Below are positions 25,993 through 64,000 of a stretch of 64,000 bases of DNA, one piece after another. Source of the DNA: Candidatus Omnitrophota bacterium (GTDB lineage Bacteria; Omnitrophota; Gorgyraeia; 2-01-FULL-45-10); contig JAQUQN010000001.1 in NCBI GenBank assembly GCA_028716065.1, forward strand, positions 13,266-77,265. Reading direction: 5' to 3'. Positions within the stretch are counted from its first letter, which is position 1, and the number at the start of each line of letters is the position of its first letter. Below the pieces are notes generated by a model, which was not told the origin of the DNA, did not search any database, and worked only from the letters and a program-made list of their open reading frames with translations. Made by a program: the position numbers and the translations under genes.

Positions 25993-26060
25993 TATCCGCC
26001 TTCGCAATCAACGTGTAATAGGCTAGGTGCTTCGGCGGATGTCACACTGAAGCGGGTAGG
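25993..26060 (+). repeat. Copy B of the 68-nt duplicated segment
   Basis: See copy A at 24001-24068. The differences are two clustered 2-nt changes. Confidence 0.7.
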
Positions 26061-26062
26061 CG

Positions 26063-26152
26063 GATACCCCCACTGTTAGATTTGCGAAGCAAATCTGGTG
26101 GGGGTTGGCAGATACCCCCACTGTTAGATTTGCGAAGCAAATCTGGTGGGGG
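26063..26152 (+). repeat. Two tandem 42-nt imperfect-palindrome (hairpin) units separated by 6 nt
   Basis: Unit gataCCCCCACtgttAGATTTGCgaaGCAAATCTggtgGGGGG at 26063-26104 and 26111-26152, period 48. A further GTAA-tetraloop hairpin lies at 26166-26183. Confidence 0.7.
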
Positions 26153-26211
26153 TAAAGAAAGGAATCACGGGCGTAAGCCCGTGGGGTTCCATGAAAGAGG
26201 AGGTGATTTAA

Positions 26212-37727: not shown

Positions 37728-37744
37728 GTATATTTTTAGGAAGT

Positions 37745-37858
37745 AATATTGGTAATGGTAAGGGTTACGAAGCCCGTATCGGTTACGGTAAAGGTTACGT
37801 AAAGACGAATAACGTAGCCGAATTACGAAACGGGCATCGTTACCGTTACCCAACAACG
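37745..37858 (+). promoter_or_regulatory. Imperfect long inverted repeat with GGTTACG direct repeats between gatA and gatB
   Basis: ttggtaatggtaagggttacgaagcccgtatcg... is mirrored by ...cgaaacgggcatcgttaccgttacccaa. Confidence 0.3.
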
Positions 37859-37865
37859 TGAATTT

Positions 37866-43164: not shown

Positions 43165-43728
43165 GTGCATAAAAAATGGAGGTGGCATATGCTGAACCGG
43201 AAGGATAAGAAGCAGACGGCGGAGAGAGTCCTCGATGTAGATGCCTCTATGCAGGGCAGCCTGGTATTCAAGGACCCGGTTAATTTAAAGATAAACGGCA
43301 GATTTGACGGCACTCTAAGCACGAAAGGCAACCTCATGATAGGCGAGCACGCAGTCGTGAACGCCGACATCATGGGAGATTCCATAGTCGTGGCCGGCAG
43401 GATCAACGGGAATATCAAGGCCACGAAAGAACTGAAACTGATATCGCCGGCATGCGTTATAGGTGATATAAAGACTCCGCTCTTGAGCGTCGCCGAAGGC
43501 GCGGTGCTGGAAGGTAATTCCAGCATGATCTCCCGCTCGAAACAGGAAACCGCTCCCATCACGAGCATGATGACGGCGGAGGAACTGGCCAAATACCTGG
43601 AAGTGGAGATGTCGATGGTATTCGAATGGGCTAATAACGGCAAGATACCGGGCGTCAGGGACGGGAACAACTGGAGATTCGAGCGGACGAAGATAGACGA
43701 GTGGGTGGCGACGGAGAAGATAAAATAA
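43165..43728 (+). CDS. Bactofilin-domain protein fused to a C-terminal HTH_17 (excisionase-type) DNA-binding domain
   Basis: Central bactofilin beta-helix repeats (VNLKINGRFDGTL...MIGEHAVVNADIMGDSIVVAGRINGNIKAT...VIGDIKTP...EGAVLEGN) and C-terminal MTAEELAKYLEVEMSMVFEWANNGKIPGVR..WRFERTKIDEWV. The start could be 43165 or 43189. Confidence 0.65.
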   Translation: MHKKWRWHMLNRKDKKQTAERVLDVDASMQGSLVFKDPVNLKINGRFDGTLSTKGNLMIGEHAVVNADIMGDSIVVAGRINGNIKATKELKLISPACVIGDIKTPLLSVAEGAVLEGNSSMISRSKQETAPITSMMTAEELAKYLEVEMSMVFEWANNGKIPGVRDGNNWRFERTKIDEWVATEKIK

Positions 43729-43861
43729 GCGTAAAGTGTAAAGCGAAAAGCGCAAAATTTCCCGCTGTGGCGGGATCCCGCAAAAGGCGGGAAAAACTTA
43801 GAGTTTAAAGCGTTTTAAGTTTTACGTTTTAATTTTACGTTTTGCGCTTTGCGTTTTACAC
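43728..43861. promoter_or_regulatory. About 22-bp imperfect inverted repeats (GTGTAAAGCGAAAAGCGCAAAA / TTTTGCGCTTTGCGTTTTACAC) flanking a set of mutually exclusive CCCGC/GCGGG hairpins
   Basis: 43758-43796 reads tttCCCGCtgtgGCGGGatCCCGCaaaagGCGGGaaaa. It lies between two HTH_17 genes, making it a candidate operator or centromere-like site. Confidence 0.4.
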
Positions 43862-43887
43862 TAAAGGTAGTTATAGGGGTATTAATT

Positions 43888-44289
43888 ATGCCTGAGAAAC
43901 TGTTCAATATAAAAGAGGTCGCTCAATATCTGAAACTTCCGGAAGAAGAGGTGAAGCGCCTTGTCGATATCGGAGAGATACCGGCGTACAGGATAGGCGG
44001 GACGTTCCTGCGTTTCAGGAAAGAACAACTTGACGCGATAAAGAGAGAGATCTCTACCATAGAGGAGGCGGAACCCGAACACGCCAAACCCGTCCTCGAT
44101 TCGAAGGGGCATCCGACCCATCCTTATACCGACCTGGAAAGAGAGATAAAGCGTAAAGAGCCCATCACGAGGCAATACGATTATACTTTGTTGGAGAGGT
44201 TGCGGGATTTTTTCTATTTTTATGATTTTTATCTCGTCTGTTTTCTTATAATTGGCGCGTTATTTTACGTGATTTTTTTCAAGAGTTGA
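43888..44289 (+). CDS. HTH_17 (excisionase-family) DNA-binding protein with a C-terminal TM anchor
   Basis: LFNIKEVAQYLKLPEEEVKRLVDIGEIPAYRIGGTFLRFRKEQL, then a hydrophobic C-terminal helix (FFYFYDFYLVCFLIIGALFYVIFF). Confidence 0.6.
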   Translation: MPEKLFNIKEVAQYLKLPEEEVKRLVDIGEIPAYRIGGTFLRFRKEQLDAIKREISTIEEAEPEHAKPVLDSKGHPTHPYTDLEREIKRKEPITRQYDYTLLERLRDFFYFYDFYLVCFLIIGALFYVIFFKS

Positions 44290-44293
44290 ACGA

Positions 44294-45034
44294 ATGTCAG
44301 AAAACATAGAGAGATTACTTAAAGGGGTCAGGGCGGGGCGCCTCTCCACGGACAGGGCGCTCGGCGTATTGAAGGACCTTCCCTATAAAGACCTGGGCTT
44401 CGCGCGGATAGATAACCACAGGGCCTTGCGCCGCGGTTTTCCGGAGGTCATCTTCGGAAAGGGCAAAACTCCCGACCAGATAATAAAGATAGCCAGAAGG
44501 ATCATCTCTAGCGACGGCATACTCCTCATAACCCGCACCGATACAAAGGTCTATTCGCGGCTCAAGAAGATATATCCGAAAATAAAGTTCGACAAGAAAT
44601 CCGGCATCATATACTACAGGACCACGCCGCCTCCGATCAAGACCGGCAAGGTCCTTATCATTACCGCCGGTACCGCGGATCTGCCGGTGGCTGAAGAGGC
44701 GAGGGCCACGCTCGAGATAATGGGCGATCCGGTGGAGATATTGTGTGATGTTGGCGTCGCGGGCCTGCACAGGTTACTGGACAAGATGAAGGCGCTTGGT
44801 GAGGCGGATGTCATAATAGTCATAGCTGGCATGGAAGGGGCCCTGGCGAGCGTCGTCAGCGGCCTGGTGTCCAAGCCCGTCATAGCCGTTCCCACGAGCG
44901 TCGGTTATGGTGCGAGTTTCGGCGGGGTGGCGGCACTCCTTACCATGATGAATTCCTGTTCGCCGGGCGTCTCGGTAGTGAATATCGACAACGGTTTCGG
45001 CGCGGCATATTTCGCGAGCATGATCAATAAATAA
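44294..45034 (+). CDS. larB: LarB (nickel-pincer cofactor biosynthesis carboxylase/hydrolase, PurE-like)
   Basis: PurE-like GKVLIITAGTADLPVAEEA...VIIVIAGMEGALASVV. It directly precedes larC. Confidence 0.7.
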   Translation: MSENIERLLKGVRAGRLSTDRALGVLKDLPYKDLGFARIDNHRALRRGFPEVIFGKGKTPDQIIKIARRIISSDGILLITRTDTKVYSRLKKIYPKIKFDKKSGIIYYRTTPPPIKTGKVLIITAGTADLPVAEEARATLEIMGDPVEILCDVGVAGLHRLLDKMKALGEADVIIVIAGMEGALASVVSGLVSKPVIAVPTSVGYGASFGGVAALLTMMNSCSPGVSVVNIDNGFGAAYFASMINK

Positions 45035-45047
45035 GGTTACCTTTTGT

Positions 45048-46217
45048 ATGCGAATAGCGTATTTCGATTGTATGAGCGGCATAAGCGGGGACATGACCAT
45101 CGCGGCGTTTCTTGATGCCGGATTGAGCATGAAGACGCTTAAGGCGCAACTTGCCAGGCTGAATCTCAAAGGTTATGAAATTAAAGAGAGCAGGACGAAC
45201 AGGGGCTCTATCGATGCGGTAAAATTCGATGTCATCTGTAAAAATGAAAAACACAGCCATAGAAAACTGAAAGATATTTTGAGGCTTATAGATAAAAGCG
45301 CGCTTGATGCGGAGATAAAAAAGACGGCAAAGGATATCTTCAATAATATCGGTAATGCGGAGGCGAAGGTCCACGGCCTATCCAAAAATCAGGAGATAGA
45401 TTTTGACGAGATCGGACAGGTAGATTCCATAATAGATATAGTGGCTGTGGCGATAGCGGTCCATGAGCTGAAGATAGGCGAAGTATATTCCTCGAACATC
45501 ACGTTCGGAAGGTCCTTTACGAAAACGGCCCATGGCAGTCTGCCGATACCCGCCCCGGCGGCCCTGGAACTTCTGAAAGGCGTGCCGGCCAGGATATGCG
45601 AAATCGAGGCCGAACTCGTGACACCCACGGGCGCAGGGATACTCAAGACGCTTGCCAGGGGTTTCGGCGACATGCCGGAACTGAAGATATCGCAGATCGG
45701 TTACGGCGCCGGGACTAGAGTTTTGAAGAACATGCCGAACCTGCTTCGCGTGGTGATAGGTGAAAGGGTTCCTGCCTACATGAAGGACAGGGTAACCGTT
45801 CTGGAAACTAACATAGATGACATGAATCCGCAGAATTTTGAATATCTCTTCGAGAGGCTCTTCAAGGAAGGGGCGCTCGACGTATTCCTGGCCAACATAA
45901 TAATGAAAAAATCCAGGCCAGCGTTTAAGTTGACCGTCCTGGCCGAGCCGGTGTTGGCAGAAAAGATGAAATCGGTGATATTCAGCGAGACCTCGACCAT
46001 CGGGATAAGATATTACGAAGTGAACCGCTCAAAGCTCGAGCGTGAAACCCGTAAGGTCCATACGGGATACGGAGACGTGACCGTTAAATTTTCCTCCGGC
46101 CCCGGCAATTTACGCAATGTCGCTCCTGAGTATGAGGATTGTGTCAGGCTCGCGAAAGCGAAAAAAATACCATTAAAGGTGGTCTATGAAGAAGCTAAGA
46201 AGGCTATTAAAGTTTAG
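45048..46217 (+). CDS. larC: LarC nickel insertase (DUF111)
   Basis: MRIAYFDCMSGISGDMTIAAFLDAGL N-terminal signature, 389 aa. Confidence 0.8.
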   Translation: MRIAYFDCMSGISGDMTIAAFLDAGLSMKTLKAQLARLNLKGYEIKESRTNRGSIDAVKFDVICKNEKHSHRKLKDILRLIDKSALDAEIKKTAKDIFNNIGNAEAKVHGLSKNQEIDFDEIGQVDSIIDIVAVAIAVHELKIGEVYSSNITFGRSFTKTAHGSLPIPAPAALELLKGVPARICEIEAELVTPTGAGILKTLARGFGDMPELKISQIGYGAGTRVLKNMPNLLRVVIGERVPAYMKDRVTVLETNIDDMNPQNFEYLFERLFKEGALDVFLANIIMKKSRPAFKLTVLAEPVLAEKMKSVIFSETSTIGIRYYEVNRSKLERETRKVHTGYGDVTVKFSSGPGNLRNVAPEYEDCVRLAKAKKIPLKVVYEEAKKAIKV

Positions 46218-47169
46218 CGTATTACTGGTTACGAGTTACTGGTTACTGGTTACGATAGTTAACGCCGACACGATATACACCAATGATGGAAAAGAGATAA
46301 AAGGCATCGTCGTGGAAGATTACAAGGACAGACTGGTATTCTCGACGCCCGACGGCGAGATCATGCTGATGAAATCCGATATCCGGGAACTCTATATCGA
46401 CAGCGAAGAGGATAACCTGATAAAGCTCGCGGAACAGGCATTCGAAAGAAAGGACTACGCCAGAAGTTATAGTTATTACGATAAGGCCCACAAATTGAAT
46501 CCGGATTCCAGCCGCGCCAAGGATGGACTGGTTTATGTCAGGTCTTACCTCTATCGGCAGGGTGAGGCGGCCAAGATGGAGGCGATAAGAAGGCAGGCGG
46601 AATTTGAAAAGAGCGGGAAGGCCGTTATCAGGACCGAATATGCCGAAGAGGAAGAGACGCGGATTAAAGAGGAGAAACTCAAGAACTCATTGGGATTTAC
46701 CTTGACCCTCAAGGACGGTTTTCCCGAGGTCGATAATATAGGTAAGGACTCTCCCGCATCCCAGGCAGGTATATCGAAAGGCGACCTCATAGTCTCTATA
46801 TGGGGAAGATTGACCGGTTACATGTCGCTGATCGAAGTGATAGACAGGCTGCTGGAGCGCTCGTCGTTCGAGATAAAGTGCCTAATAGAGAGGACCGTCA
46901 GGGTCGATATAAGCGATAATAGAAATATTCTGTCCGGGCCCAAGGAGCTTATCGGCGCCGAACTCAAGATGGAATTTGACGGCCTGACCATTACCGAGGT
47001 GACAAGAGGCGATACGGATCTAAGAAAGGACGACCTCATCACGGCCATAGACGGCAAATCGACACGCTACATGCCGATAAAGCAGGCGATCGAAATGATA
47101 AAGAATTCAAAGGGCAAGGATATTAAACTGACCATAAGAAGAGAAGTCGTAATATGGAGAAAGGGTTAA
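46186..47169 (+). CDS. Secreted protein with two PDZ domains
   Basis: Signal peptide, then two PDZ-like segments (GFTLTLKDG...ISKGDLIVSIWG; GAELKMEFDGLTITEV...DDLITAIDGKS). Confidence 0.5.
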   Translation: MKKLRRLLKFSVLLVTSYWLLVTIVNADTIYTNDGKEIKGIVVEDYKDRLVFSTPDGEIMLMKSDIRELYIDSEEDNLIKLAEQAFERKDYARSYSYYDKAHKLNPDSSRAKDGLVYVRSYLYRQGEAAKMEAIRRQAEFEKSGKAVIRTEYAEEEETRIKEEKLKNSLGFTLTLKDGFPEVDNIGKDSPASQAGISKGDLIVSIWGRLTGYMSLIEVIDRLLERSSFEIKCLIERTVRVDISDNRNILSGPKELIGAELKMEFDGLTITEVTRGDTDLRKDDLITAIDGKSTRYMPIKQAIEMIKNSKGKDIKLTIRREVVIWRKG

Positions 47170-47172
47170 AAC

Positions 47173-47775
47173 ATGGAAAAAAGAGAAGTCCCTTATATTA
47201 AAAGAAAGAAGTACCTGGTAGCCAAGCAGTTCCAGTTAAAGTACGCCGGCCTCTTTTTGCTCTTCATGTTCCTGACAGGCGCATTATGTTCTTACACGAT
47301 CTATTATACGGTCATGGTGCTGATGGGCGAAAAATTGGCGAGTGTATATCCGCAGGGGCGGCTCGTGGCCATCATAAACACGGTAAATCTGCGTATCCTC
47401 TTGAGCCTCATAGTGGTAGCGCCTTTCGTGGCAATGTTCTCCATATTTTTATCGCATAAGATAGCCGGCCCAATGTACAGGATGGAAAAGTTCCTGACAG
47501 GCATGGCTGAAGGCGATTTCAGTTCGCGCATAACCTTGAGAAAAGGTGACGAACTCATGTCTCTCGCGAATAAGATAAACGGTGTCATCGACAGCCTCAG
47601 GTCCAACATAATAAAACAGAAGGATAGCATCAGGAGCATAGCCTCTGAACTGGACGCGATAAAGAAGGCCATGACCGGCACCAAGCATGACAGGGAAGTC
47701 ATAGTCCAGGATATAGAGAAATTGGCCGGTAATATTGATAACCTTTCCGGCGAGTTAAATAAGTATAAAATATAA
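47173..47775 (+). CDS. Membrane protein with a stand-alone HAMP-like domain
   Basis: Two TM helices, then the HAMP-like AGPMYRMEKFLTGMAEGDFSSRITLRKGDELMSLANKINGVIDSL. Confidence 0.5.
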   Translation: MEKREVPYIKRKKYLVAKQFQLKYAGLFLLFMFLTGALCSYTIYYTVMVLMGEKLASVYPQGRLVAIINTVNLRILLSLIVVAPFVAMFSIFLSHKIAGPMYRMEKFLTGMAEGDFSSRITLRKGDELMSLANKINGVIDSLRSNIIKQKDSIRSIASELDAIKKAMTGTKHDREVIVQDIEKLAGNIDNLSGELNKYKI

Positions 47776-47979: not shown

Positions 47980-48174
47980 ATGCCCGAAGAAACTCTATTT
48001 ACAGTTGATGAATTGGCCACCTATCTGAGGATGAAGCCTGTTACCATATATAAACACGCTAAAGCAGGCAAACTTCCGGGATTCAAGGTAGGGGCCAACT
48101 GGCGGTTCAAGAAGTCGACTATCGATCGCTGGATCACTGACCAGGAAAAAGAACGAAATCATATCACCAAATAA
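47980..48174 (+). CDS. HTH_17 (excisionase-family) small DNA-binding protein
   Basis: FTVDELATYLRMKPVTIYKHAKAGKLPGFKVGANWRFKKSTIDRWI, 64 aa. Confidence 0.65.
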   Translation: MPEETLFTVDELATYLRMKPVTIYKHAKAGKLPGFKVGANWRFKKSTIDRWITDQEKERNHITK

Positions 48175-60580: not shown

Positions 60581-63500
60581 GAGGTGACCCATGTTACTAC
60601 CAAACAAATTGAAGTTTCTTTTCAGGACGATATCGGTTTGCGTCATCTTTCTCTTTCTCTGGCAGCAGATAACGTGGGCGGCAGGCGCTGATTTATTGAA
60701 TAACACCGTAACTACCACCGAAACCACCTCTGACGGAATGACGCCGGAGGCTCTAAAATCCAGCCAGAATACGGTAGAGTCGATCATAACCACAAAGAAC
60801 GCGATAGAGACATCGAAGGCTTCCTCGACCCCTTCTTATACGTATACTTATTATAAAAGCGGTCTCATCCAGTCCGTCACCTTAAGTTCGCCCGACCAGT
60901 TCGGCAATATCTATTATTATTATCTCAATGAGAACTGGAATGGCCAGGGCCACGGCAGGATCTTCAAAACCAAACGTCAGGACCCATTAGATGGAGAGCT
61001 TTCCTATATATACTATTACTATGGGAAGACGGACAGGATAAGAATTCGCAGGGGCTATGCCACCTCCACCTGGACCAAGTTGTCATCCAACTACTATTAC
61101 AACAACAACGCCGCAAACAGGCTATCATACAGGCAGCTTGCGGCCCCCGATTCTCAAGGCTTTATCTACTACCACTATATAGATGAAGACTTCAACGGCC
61201 AGGGATACGGAAGAGTCGATAAGACAAGGCGTAAAGTTGCCTTAAACGGGGAACTCTCTTATACCTATATATATTATGCCAACTCCGACAGGATCCAGAC
61301 CGCCAGCGCCTATGGTACGGCTTCATGGACCAAACTTCGTTCTACATACACTTATTATAATAATGACAGTAATAGAATAGAGTCGAATACCCTCATAACC
61401 GCCGATAAATCGGGCAATGTCTATTATCACTACCTGGATGAGAATTGGCAGTCCCAGGGTTATGGCAGGGTGGATAAGAAGGTTCGTAAAACCGCCGATT
61501 TGAGCGACGCCAAGTCATATACGTTTATCTATCATCCCGGCATGGACAAAGTGAAGTACGAATATGATTATAGAAACAGCGACTTCACGTCATTGTTCGT
61601 AATAAAGGAGTATAACACGGCCGGAGTTATTATAAAAACGACGCAGGTTTCCGACGGAACTTATACCTTTTACGCCTCAGGCCGATTCGAATCCGTTACC
61701 TATGCTGTTCCGGATGCCTCCGGTAACACCTACTATCACTACTTGGATGAGGACTGGAATGGCCAGGGCTATGGCAGGGTAGACAAGTCCAGAAGACAGA
61801 CCGCATCGAATGGAGAATTAACCTACGCTTATATATATTATGCTGATGGCACGGGAAGACTCAAAGAGAAGAGGTCTTATTCAGATAACAATTGGACGAG
61901 CCTCGTATCCATTTATACCTATTATAACGATTCCAACGGAAGGCTCCAATCAAAGTATGACCCCTCTACAGGCATAACAACCGCTTATTACAATGATTCA
62001 AATAACAGGATAGAGTCAAGAACCTTGGCCACGCCCGATGCTGGAGGTAATATCTATTACCATTATCTGAATGAGGATTGGAATAATCAGGGATATGGAA
62101 AGATAGATAGGCAAGATGCGTCGAATGGCGATTTCGTCACTTTCGAATACTGGTCATCCGGGAATAAAAAGGTGGAGGCTTTCTTTGAACAAGACAGTAC
62201 CTGGCAGAAGACGATCGAATATTGGGAAGATGGTATAACCTTGCGCCGGTACGAGATTGCCGATTATAATCCCAGCCCGACGGGAATAGAAGTCTGTTAT
62301 GATTATGATAATCAAGGGCAACTCATAAAGAAGACATTCGATAACGGTGATTTCATTACCTACGAATACTGGTCTAGCGGAAATGAGAAACAGGAAGCAT
62401 TTTTCGATGTAAACTGGAACTGGCAAAGGACGATTGAGTATTGGGAGGATGGTAGCACCTTACACCACCAGTGGTTTGCCGATTACGATCCTACACCTAC
62501 CAGATACCTTGTTTATTGTGAGTACGATGACCTCGGCAGAGTAATAAATAATAGTTTCGATAATGACGATCGCCTCCTGATTGAATACTGGTTGTCGGGT
62601 AATAAAAAACAAGACGCATTTTTTAAGGAAAACTGGACCTGGCAATATACGATCGAATACTGGGATAACGCTACTTCCATTAAACACTATGAGTGGATCG
62701 CTGATGCAAATACCGGCACCGCAGGTGATATTACTAACTACGAATACGACGAACAGGAAAGGGTGGTGGCCGAAAGATTTGATACTGGTGATTTTGTCCT
62801 TATTGAATATTGGTCTTCCGGCAATAAAAAACAGGACGCATTTTTTAAACAAGATTGGACATGGCAATATACCATCGAATACTGGGATAGCACTACCTCT
62901 ATTAAACATTATGAGTGGATCACCGACGCAAATCCAGGCGCAGAAGGAGATGTAGTCTATTGCGAACATAATTCCACAGGCGCTGCGATAAAGCTGACAT
63001 ATGATAACGGTGAAACATGCGAATACGATGATCAGGGCAGAGTTACAAAGAAAACGCTTCCGAACGGCGATTTTATTCTCACCGAATATTGGTCCTCCGG
63101 CAACAAGAAAATAGATGAATTCTTCAGCGCAGAAAATGTCTGGCAGAAGACGATCAAATACTGGGATGACGCTAATAACTATATTGAATCCGTATCATTA
63201 GCTATACCCGATACCGATGGTAATAGCTATTACCACTATCTAGATGAGAATTGGCAAAATCAGGGATATGGAAAGATAGATAGGTTGCGGAGATCTGATG
63301 CCGATGAGGAAGGCGCTATCGGCTATGAGTACACTTATTATTATAATGGCATGACAACGGGGGATTCGGAGAGTGACGGACAAAATGAGATTATAGCCGA
63401 TTTCGGCTATGACGGCCTTTGGATATATAGAAATAACGAATGGACCCGTCTTTCTACTTATGATGCTGATGCCTGTAGCATAGCAGACGCCACAGGTGAC

Positions 63501-64000
63501 GACAAGAACGATATAATTGTAGATTTTGGAAGCAAGGGTTTCTTTGTATATTCCAACAACGGCTGGACACAACTCTCAACTTATGATGCTGAAGTTTTTA
63601 CAATAGCAGATGCCACTGGTGACGGTAAGAACGACATAATCGTAGATTTTGGAAGCAAGGGTTTCTTTGTATATTCCAACAACAGCTGGACACTGATCTC
63701 AACTTATGATGCTGAAGTTTTTACAATAGCAGATGCAACAGGCGACGGCAAGAACGATATAATCGTAGATTTTGGGAGCAAGGGTTTCTTTGTATATTCC
63801 AACAACGGCTGGACACAGCTTTCCCAATGGGATGTTGAAATATTCAGTATAGCAGACGTCACGGGAGATGATAAGAACGAAATAATAGGAGATTTCGGAG
63901 ACAATGGTTTTTGGGTCTATTCCAATGGTTCATGGAATGAACCTTCTATCTGGGATGCTGAGGCCTTTACAGTGACGGAGGTTACCGGCGACGGTAAAAA
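60581..64000 (+). CDS. Giant secreted repeat protein (adhesin-like): signal peptide, six YYHYLDENWNGQGYGR-type modules, five EYWSSGNKK...WQ.TIEYWD modules, then FG-GAP/VCBS-like repeats; continues past the window end
   Basis: Open in one frame from ATG 60581 to position 64000 with no stop. Absent from the ORF track because no stop is reached. Hydrophobic signal-like N-terminus. Confidence 0.8.

Follow-up and report, generated by a model that had tools for sequence, protein, structure and literature searches.

What a bactofilin does with an excisionase-type winged helix at its C-terminus, and why the next gene encodes a second such domain tied to the membrane, is the question raised by positions 43165-44289 of a 64-kb stretch of Candidatus Omnitrophota DNA (contig JAQUQN010000001.1; this whole stretch is called the window below). 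We refer to the bactofilin-winged-helix fusion as gene B and to the membrane-anchored HTH_17 paralogue as gene T. Our analysis showed that B and T form a conserved Omnitrophota gene pair, whose architecture is absent from the literature and curated families that we found, and we tentatively read the pair as a bactofilin scaffold associated with the membrane, whose winged helices serve to couple proteins. The three parts of the locus are:

43189-43728, + strand: gene B, bactofilin-winged-helix fusion, 179 amino acids (Pfam; identical 179-residue database protein P0001)
43729-43887, + strand: intergenic spacer, a lineage-specific structured insertion absent in the closest relatives
43888-44289, + strand: gene T, predicted membrane protein, tail-anchored, its HTH_17 head in the cytoplasm, 133 amino acids (Pfam; identical 133-residue database protein P0271)

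These boundaries differ from those of the original prediction, which began B at a GTG at 43165, eight codons upstream of the start used by its homologues. Since 179 and 133 residues are the lengths of both the homologues and the identical proteins at NCBI, we moved the starts to the ATG at 43189, which has a GGAGGTG Shine-Dalgarno sequence 5 nt upstream, and to the ATG at 43888, where the homologues of T begin. As a result of these corrected starts the spacer comprises 159 nt.

The domain assignments were borne out. In the open reading frame (ORF) 43165-43728, Pfam placed Bactofilin at residues 22-119 (E 1.3e-22; 80 bits against a 27.9-bit cut-off) and HTH_17 at residues 135-183 (E 3.9e-10; 40.3 bits against a 27-bit cut-off), and the HTH_17 domain of T scored 42 bits against the same 27-bit cut-off (E 1.2e-10). 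Both domains also passed the 28.8-bit cut-off of TIGR01764 in NCBIfam, at 45.2 bits for B and 40.2 bits for T. The view that a direct fusion would be unusual was upheld as well; our literature searches found no description of a bactofilin-HTH fusion and NCBIfam returned only the domain-level TIGR01764 above cut-off, with no family for the whole architecture.

The fusion is widespread within one phylum. A word-indexed search gave 1090 clusters of B homologues at 90% identity, and the 120 homologues listed were all Bactofilin plus HTH_17 proteins of about 179 residues, 65-76% identical to B, with organism names that were all Omnitrophica or Omnitrophota. A gene-calling artefact or chance fusion is ruled out by these more than 1000 homologues and by the shared architecture of all 120 listed. 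For T the database gave 547 homologues, and the 120 listed contained HTH_17 only. HMMER, run exhaustively over 1.84 billion representatives (50% identity), returned 11,377 bactofilin matches, only about 25-30 clusters of which spanned both domains at full length, so the B family is a narrow one. When one genome of each GTDB species was scanned, relatives turned up in at least 292 genomes, a lower bound obtained with two peptide patterns. All 80 fetched loci were of the Omnitrophota type, including some labelled "uncultured Planctomycetia" by the submitter, in which synteny was unchanged. Identity across the phylum was 50-76%, as is typical of vertically inherited core genes.

The two genes travel together. 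In all 82 loci with downstream DNA, T lay directly after B, with a gap that was usually 0-30 nt (median 10 nt), consistent with co-transcription and possibly translational coupling. Using tblastn of the window proteins on 85 loci, we defined the surrounding block as gatB, a ctpA-like S41 peptidase gene, a polysaccharide-deacetylase-like gene, tsaD, (mgtC), B, T, (larB, larC), a TPR-2xPDZ gene, a HAMP-like gene, a 64-residue HTH_17 gene and fabF, with the bracketed genes variable; loci without mgtC and larBC had the order tsaD, B, T, PDZ, HAMP. Divergent members of the B family (35-41% identity) kept the B-T pair with different neighbours, namely tsaD, B, T, SNase, tilS in L091, B, T, larB in L090, and SPOR, TPR/PDZ, B, T in L092. 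Only the most distant member, L089 (27% identity), was found without T.

We modelled B with AlphaFold2 (AF2) from a 64-sequence alignment. The mean predicted local distance difference test score (pLDDT) was 85.5 and the predicted template modelling score (pTM) was 0.58, a combination that we read as two rigid domains whose mutual orientation is not fixed. The model divides B as follows:

43189-43221, + strand: basic disordered N-terminal tail MLNRKDKKQTA, residues 1-11, possibly a peptide of the membrane-targeting type (pLDDT <50)
43228-43527, + strand: bactofilin beta-helix core, residues 14-113 (AF2 pLDDT 91-98)
43528-43566, + strand: flexible linker, residues 114-126 (pLDDT <50 at 117-124)
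43567-43713, + strand: C-terminal winged helix of the HTH_17 (Xis/BldC/MerR) fold, an acidic variant (Pfam, TIGR01764, Foldseek)

The winged helix was compact at residues 127-175 (pLDDT 86-90). In a Foldseek search of the PDB the core matched BacA (2n3d; template modelling score 0.83, root-mean-square deviation (rmsd) 2.3 A) and TtBac (6rib), and a profile search of PDB sequences found the same two proteins (E 2e-14 and 2e-13). Exchange of a single interface phenylalanine abolishes polymerisation in both of them (TtBac F105R, 6ria; BacA F130R; PMC12448750). This residue aligned with L107 of B, in a column that was hydrophobic in 86 of 86 B sequences (L44, F31, I7, M3, V1), and because the interface position is always hydrophobic in the family, B is likely to polymerise. 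The N-termini MLNRKDKK of B and MMGKKDKK of its relatives are basic with hydrophobic residues at positions 1-2, a partial resemblance to the bactofilin membrane-targeting consensus MFSKKKK (PMC12448750) that lacks its Phe2. B shares with canonical bactofilins (PF04519; Caulobacter crescentus BacA and Thermus thermophilus TtBac) the beta-helix, the hydrophobic interface residue, a disordered basic N-terminal tail and an envelope-gene context. It differs from them in the missing phenylalanine of MFSKKKK, in the dedicated tail-anchored partner gene that follows, and in its C-terminus, which is a conserved folded winged helix whereas canonical C-terminal tails are short, disordered and poorly conserved.

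The claim that the downstream gene joins an HTH_17 domain to a C-terminal transmembrane helix was confirmed by Pfam and by a hydrophobicity scan. Its two parts are:

43900-44067, + strand: winged helix of T, residues 5-60 (alignment invariants; BldC contact table)
44212-44280, + strand: aromatic juxtamembrane motif DFFYFxDFY followed by a transmembrane helix, residues 115-131 (Kyte-Doolittle; AF2)

In the window the motif reads DFFYFYDFY and the hydrophobic helix ends two residues before the stop codon. AF2 gave T alone a moderate pLDDT of 68, with residues 101-132 forming a helix at pLDDT 79-93. Since in every full-length orthologue the Kyte-Doolittle scan put 0-4 residues between the helix and the C-terminus, T is predicted to be a tail-anchored inner-membrane protein whose winged helix faces the cytoplasm and which lacks a periplasmic domain. 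Among solved structures, its head came closest to the mycobacteriophage Xis protein of Pukovnik (4j2n; E 5.5e-4). The recognition helix begins with three acidic residues (E19-E20-E21), and E19, E21, R24 and D27 were invariant in the close-family alignment.

Whether these winged helices could read DNA was evaluated against BldC of Streptomyces, the founding member of the small MerR-like/HTH_17 DNA binders and the closest solved fold to the domain of B; BldC works as a monomer and lacks a coiled coil. The B domain superposed on BldC-DNA complexes with an rmsd of 1.3-1.7 A over 49-51 residues (Foldseek), and further matches of this fold in the PDB were RdfS, Pukovnik Xis, RacA, MerR proteins and CbpM. 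BldC contacts bases through K26 and R30, and an R30A mutant does not bind; phosphate contacts are made by T27, T29, K33 and W31, and the wing comprises H46, R47 and R48 (PMC5859096). We aligned BldC with 86 sequences of B, 81 of T and 5 of the small 64-residue paralogue, and positions below are in BldC numbering. The BldC sequence entered in this table, which we presume to be the correct one, agrees with every residue that the BldC paper names.

Position 30 of B, the equivalent of the essential Arg30, was Glu or Asp in 74 of the 86 orthologues, while position 26 was S, N or G, position 27 was V, L or M, and position 33 was N, S or D. Positions 26, 27, 29 and 33 were mostly non-basic and lacked Thr, leaving only the R48 equivalent and some basic positions beside the wing (36, 41, 51 and 53). 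In the 81 T sequences, positions 25-27 and 33 were Glu or Asp; R or K stood at position 30 in 48, R48 was present in all 81, and R or K was found at position 50 in 80. The net charge of the B winged helix was -2 in the window and averaged -1.9 over 86 orthologues, and that of the T winged helix was -1, against about +5 for BldC by our own count. By these alignments, most residues of the BldC type that touch DNA have been lost from both fused winged helices, and it is doubtful that B reads DNA directly. BldC itself is a free basic protein of 68 residues, unlike the fused domain of B, in which K26, T27, T29, R30 and K33 are absent.

The protein that does resemble BldC is a neighbour encoded further downstream:

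47980-48174, + strand: third HTH_17 paralogue, 64 amino acids, basic and BldC-like (Pfam HTH_17, E 1e-15)

It keeps the equivalents of BldC T27, K33, K36 and R48, with Lys in place of Arg30, and its mean net charge was +3.8. It was the most conserved protein compared in the block (77-89% identity in syntenic relatives) and is probably the true DNA binder of the three. The B winged helix was most similar to this paralogue (tblastn; 29-48% identity), which makes a DNA-binding ancestry of the B domain likely. We infer that the domain derives from a BldC-like DNA binder and subsequently lost its canonical DNA-reading surface. B, T and this paralogue were the only HTH_17 ORFs in the window, and all three fell below the NCBIfam cut-off for BldC (about 20 bits against 77). 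The paralogue lies just upstream of fabF-like genes and could serve Omnitrophota as a global regulator of the BldC kind or as a nucleoid protein.

These observations led us to favour, tentatively, the following model of the B-T scaffold. B would polymerise beneath the cytoplasmic membrane and display its winged helices along the filament, and T would provide or reinforce membrane attachment, or offer a membrane-embedded docking point. Both winged helices would have been repurposed from DNA reading to coupling of the filament to its anchor, perhaps through contact between the two winged helix-turn-helix (wHTH) domains, or between a wHTH and the beta-helix as suggested for BacR. Such a scaffold would probably serve the envelope or division in company with the TPR-PDZ and HAMP-like proteins that travel with the pair, and the 159-nt spacer would form no part of the mechanism.

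Several known systems provide precedents for the steps of this model. The HTH protein BacR of Bacillus subtilis, encoded beside bactofilins, is bound by them and recruited to the membrane, with reduced DNA binding (PMC13649987), and the membrane-targeting peptide of a Caulobacter bactofilin can be made up for by a client that is itself membrane-bound (PMC12448750). CbpM, a MerR-fold protein that binds another protein, was among the fold matches of B. In the RodZ-MreB system, a membrane-anchored protein uses its cytoplasmic HTH head to bind a cytoskeletal filament and not DNA. RodZ differs from T in that it is a bitopic N-in protein with an XRE-type HTH, a periplasmic domain and the actin-like MreB as its partner, whereas T is predicted to be tail-anchored, with an HTH_17 domain and no periplasmic part. 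For contact between two wHTH domains the head-to-tail oligomerisation of BldC is the model, and a B-T contact of this type would fit the hydrophobic residues L21, V23 and W31 of B and L11, Y40, I42, G43 and G44 of T.

A number of points limit or weigh against protein coupling as the function of these domains. In a BldC-like contact the salt bridge R22-E16' of BldC would become a Glu-Glu pair. Mutual information between charge classes of the B and T winged-helix columns over 81 pairs was dominated by phylogeny, the top pairs being clade markers, and showed no compensatory pattern that could be interpreted; the residue combinations at positions B30/T30 were E/R 25, D/R 8 and E/K 7, but also E/D 6 and E/E 4. 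Nearly all members of the HTH_17 fold family bind DNA, and in B basic residues on the wing side are conserved at positions 36, 41, 48, 51 and 53. An acidic residue of a recognition helix can still read cytosine, as Glu181 of CAP does, and avidity in a polymer could make a weak affinity for DNA functional. Finally, the basic N-terminus of B could bind the membrane alone, and T would then be unnecessary as an anchor.

Some of these points also favour the leading alternative, in which B-T is a DNA tether or nucleoid organiser: the winged helices of the filament would bind DNA weakly or non-specifically, and T would bind DNA or the filament at the membrane. The nucleoid would thus be tied to a membrane scaffold, as in RacA-DivIVA of B. 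subtilis or BacNOP-PadC-ParB of Myxococcus xanthus, where a MerR-like winged helix or a DNA-binding adaptor is likewise coupled to a membrane-associated scaffold. The nearest folds are DNA-bound BldC, RacA, Xis and RdfS, with RacA found among both the sequence and the fold matches of B; the basic positions of the wing and flank are conserved in B (those named above) and in T (48 and 50); and descent from a DNA binder is likely, given the similarity to the 64-residue paralogue. However, B has Glu or Asp for Arg30 and has lost the phosphate contacts T27, T29 and K33, T is acidic at positions 25-27 and 33, and both domains are net negative, against about +5 in BldC and +3.8 in the third paralogue. 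We also saw no conserved DNA site near the genes and no parAB in the cluster, and ParA, ParB and PadC were all missing from the called neighbour genes. The DNA binders of the RacA and PadC-ParB systems are basic, proven and non-covalently attached, whereas the fusion in B is direct, its base-reading Arg is replaced and no parABS lies nearby; the C-terminal tail of BacNOP is long and bears a KKKVVVKK-like motif, and B has a folded winged helix instead. Tethering survives because the fold is mostly DNA-binding, the wing is basic and a polymer would supply avidity, and we regard it as possible, if rather unlikely. The DNA-binding filament proposed in the original prediction finds no support in the residues, as most BldC-type contacts are lost and the recognition helices carry acidic residues, and tethering has ceased to be the first reading to consider. 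The most elaborate form of this alternative, in which the filament, with one winged helix on each subunit, binds DNA multivalently and without sequence specificity, the tail-anchored paralogue clamps the complex to the inner membrane, and the whole forms a dedicated chromosome-anchoring cytoskeleton of Omnitrophota, seems to us doubtful.

A second alternative takes one of the winged helices as a transcription-factor domain that is sequestered on the filament or at the membrane, with autoregulation of the operon or an envelope-stress response as its output. Its precedent is BacR (YhbD) with BacE/BacF in B. subtilis (PMC13649987), where an HTH gene also adjoins a bactofilin gene, and the envelope-related neighbours of B-T (ctpA, the polysaccharide deacetylase-like gene, TPR-PDZ, HAMP-like and, in L092, SPOR) would suit such a switch. 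BacR, though, stands alone as a soluble DUF4004 dimer and is free to move to the nucleoid, whereas here one HTH is fused to the bactofilin and the second is fixed to the membrane, and neither Pfam nor NCBIfam showed a DUF4004. A domain covalently held on a polymer or membrane would not shuttle unless cleaved, and the recognition helices are acidic, with no conserved operator seen. As both domains are covalently immobilised, we consider such a switch improbable.

The third alternative places function in the spacer, as an operator, partition site or alternative-hairpin RNA switch belonging to B-T. The repeats within the spacer are:

43735-43757, unstranded: left inverted-repeat arm of 7-nt repeats of the AAGCGTA type, in an array at 43727-43756 (repeat analysis)
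43760-43792, unstranded: core of two GC hairpins, 33 nt, TCCCGC-N4-GCGGGA-TCCCGC-N5-GCGGGA, belonging to a dispersed repeat
43811-43862, unstranded: right heptamer array of the CGTTTTA type (43811-43858), including the right arm at 43840-43862 (repeat analysis)

The inverted repeat of about 22 bp that had been predicted is real, with arms of 23 nt that are 91% complementary and can be extended to 32 nt at 78%. They flank two GC hairpins (TCCCGC-tgtg-GCGGGA and TCCCGC-aaaag-GCGGGA), and the spacer as a whole folds at -61.2 kcal/mol (z = -6.5), a stability equalled by 0 of 200 shuffles. The hairpins had been described as mutually exclusive alternatives; this was ruled out, as they are tandem and coexist in both the minimum-energy and the centroid folds. 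No promoter or terminator consensus was found on the + strand in 43729-43887, where the hairpins are followed by AAAAAC and not by the U tract of an intrinsic terminator. At gathering threshold no Rfam family matched the window, and at a permissive threshold the spacer gave only a meaningless snoRNA match (E 0.55).

Comparison of the B-T gaps over 82 loci largely refuted the spacer as a conserved element. The three closest relatives, with B proteins 73-76% identical, had gaps of 6, 10 and 18 nt. Gaps of at least 58 nt occurred in 24 of the 82 loci, with unrelated sequences, none homologous to the spacer of the window, and many of these long spacers were palindromes of short tandem repeats (for example in L017, L018, L032, L037 and L066). 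Structured long spacers were most frequent on the flanks of B, upstream in 13 of 68 loci and downstream in 11 of 82, an enrichment that may reflect separate tuning of the filament-gene mRNA.

Long imperfect palindromes built of repeats were also seen in other, otherwise tight operon gaps of Omnitrophota, such as those between LarB and LarC in L073 and ahead of tsaD in L061 and L067, with a short, often 7-nt unit that differs per genome (GGTTACG, TAGCGTA, GTGAATA, CGTTTTA and others); coordinates of examples are L017 1207-1294, L061 2451-2592, L067 2788-2953, L073 2520-2621 and L083 2309-2383. Within the window, a further palindrome lies between gatA and gatB at 37728-37865 (z = -3.6). Palindromes built of heptamers recall the heptameric short tandemly repeated repetitive (STRR) sequences of cyanobacteria.

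The core of the spacer has a wider distribution. Its exact-stem pattern, with variable loops, was found in at least 120 metagenome contigs (L093-L212; for example L095 4511-4543 and L111 661-693), where we estimate the chance expectation to be far below one. The element consists of two identical tandem hairpins with the junction GGATCC, and many copies are embedded in AT-rich tandem repeats of 7-8 nt, as are the arms here. Of 125 copies, 56 (about 45%) lay in frame inside ORFs extending at least 60 codons on each side, and these coding copies used all frames and both orientations. One lies within a ParA-like gene (…ISDF[SRSSGIPQNAG]KGNYDYVLIDCPP…), and another supplies the insert SRSSGIPQKAG of an ornithine carbamoyltransferase (OTCase) whose nearest named relative is labelled Omnitrophica. 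Among OTCase homologues 75-87% identical to each other, the insert was present, absent, shortened or expanded at one site. The expanded insert of homologue P0416 (alignment columns 145-167) reads SRLPLQRDPASSGKSRVPQNAG and apparently combines two element frames, which suggests local duplication of the repeat within the coding region.

With conserved stems at many unrelated loci and in-frame copies that are polymorphic for presence and absence, this element has the properties of a dispersed palindrome. It resembles repetitive extragenic palindromic (REP) and REPIN sequences and the Rickettsia palindromic elements in being a short GC-rich palindrome dispersed between genes, and the Rickettsia elements in particular in its in-frame copies and its presence/absence polymorphism among homologues. 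It differs from both in its size of only 33 nt, its two identical tandem hairpins, its frequent setting in 7-8-nt tandem repeats and its low density in the window. Literature searches found no description of the 33-nt element or of Omnitrophota palindromic repeats. In the 709 kb of Omnitrophota sequence compared, the only copy was that of the window, which has one in its 64 kb, and because of this single copy the density per genome may be low or restricted to certain lineages.

The strong non-random structure of the spacer would suit a functional cis element, as would the clustering of structured gaps on both flanks of B, which selection for a B transcript with its own expression or stability could explain. 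However, neither its presence nor its sequence is conserved, its core is dispersed and stands in frame inside OTCase and ParA-like genes, similar palindromes occupy unrelated gaps such as gatA/gatB, and the tandem hairpins come with neither a U-tract terminator nor a + strand promoter. The spacer is no conserved operator, because it is missing from most orthologous loci, those of the closest relatives included, and the palindromic operator or partition site of the original prediction has to be abandoned. We conclude that the spacer is a later, recent insertion of a dispersed palindromic repeat outside the conserved module; its effect, if any, would be confined to mRNA stability or to the ratio of B to T expression in this single lineage, and a role as a cis element of B-T is very improbable.

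The remaining suggestion, that B and T descend from an excisionase pair (recombination directionality factors) of a phage or integrative and conjugative element (ICE) fused by chance to a bactofilin, draws on the TIGR01764 and PHROG excisionase-family matches at domain level and on the mycobacteriophage Xis relative of T, and we dismiss it as next to impossible in view of the same phylum-wide housekeeping synteny in about 90 loci from different species, the 50-76% identity expected of vertically inherited core genes, the generic nature of the PHROG matches of the pair (excisionase or HTH families), and the lack of integrase or phage genes among the Pfam-labelled genes of the inspected loci, the whole window not having been scanned for integrases.

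Among the neighbours of B-T, two genes stand out as possible functional partners:

46186-47775, + strand: secreted TPR-2xPDZ protein (46186-47169) and HAMP-like protein with two transmembrane helices (47173-47775), identified with Pfam

They follow B-T directly when larBC is absent (L033, L034, L038-L043, L045 and L067), and in L092 (3289-4946) the TPR/PDZ gene directly precedes B-T and adjoins the SPOR-domain gene. This neighbourhood hints at an envelope or division role for the scaffold that we favour, a link drawn from the neighbours: ctpA, the deacetylase-like gene, TPR-PDZ, HAMP-like and, in L092, SPOR. In many genomes, B-T is separated from the PDZ gene by a larB-like gene of the AIR carboxylase family and by larC, a nickel-insertion gene; in the window these lie at 44294-46217 on the + strand. 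The called larC product of L001 also matches PDZ, and neither larA nor larE was among the called neighbours in the inspected loci.

Two further repeats were observed elsewhere in the window. At its edge, 63456-63994 contains about four copies of a 123-nt (41-codon) tandem repeat that are 83-89% identical; read by eye, the unit has a GDGKNDIIV-type motif resembling FG-GAP/VCBS repeats, and it may be part of a very long Omnitrophota protein. At 26054-26154, a 48-nt tandem repeat is present in 2.1 copies (94% identical), each unit of which holds the palindrome AGATTTGCGAAGCAAATCT.

Bactofilins are widespread, yet little is understood of how they are linked to their clients and to membranes, and the tails at their C-termini tend to be short and dispensable. 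In B-T, two small genes place a folded winged helix on the filament subunit and a paralogue of it in the membrane, and this arrangement has been kept across a phylum. If the winged helices bind each other, B-T would represent a new mode of bactofilin membrane attachment, in which a DNA-binding fold has been turned into a protein adaptor. If they bind DNA, B would be the first direct polymer-DNA fusion of the bactofilin family, providing an adaptor-free, ParB-independent link to the nucleoid. The pair also gives a first entry point to how cells are organised in Omnitrophota, a phylum that is uncultured and whose cells are very small.

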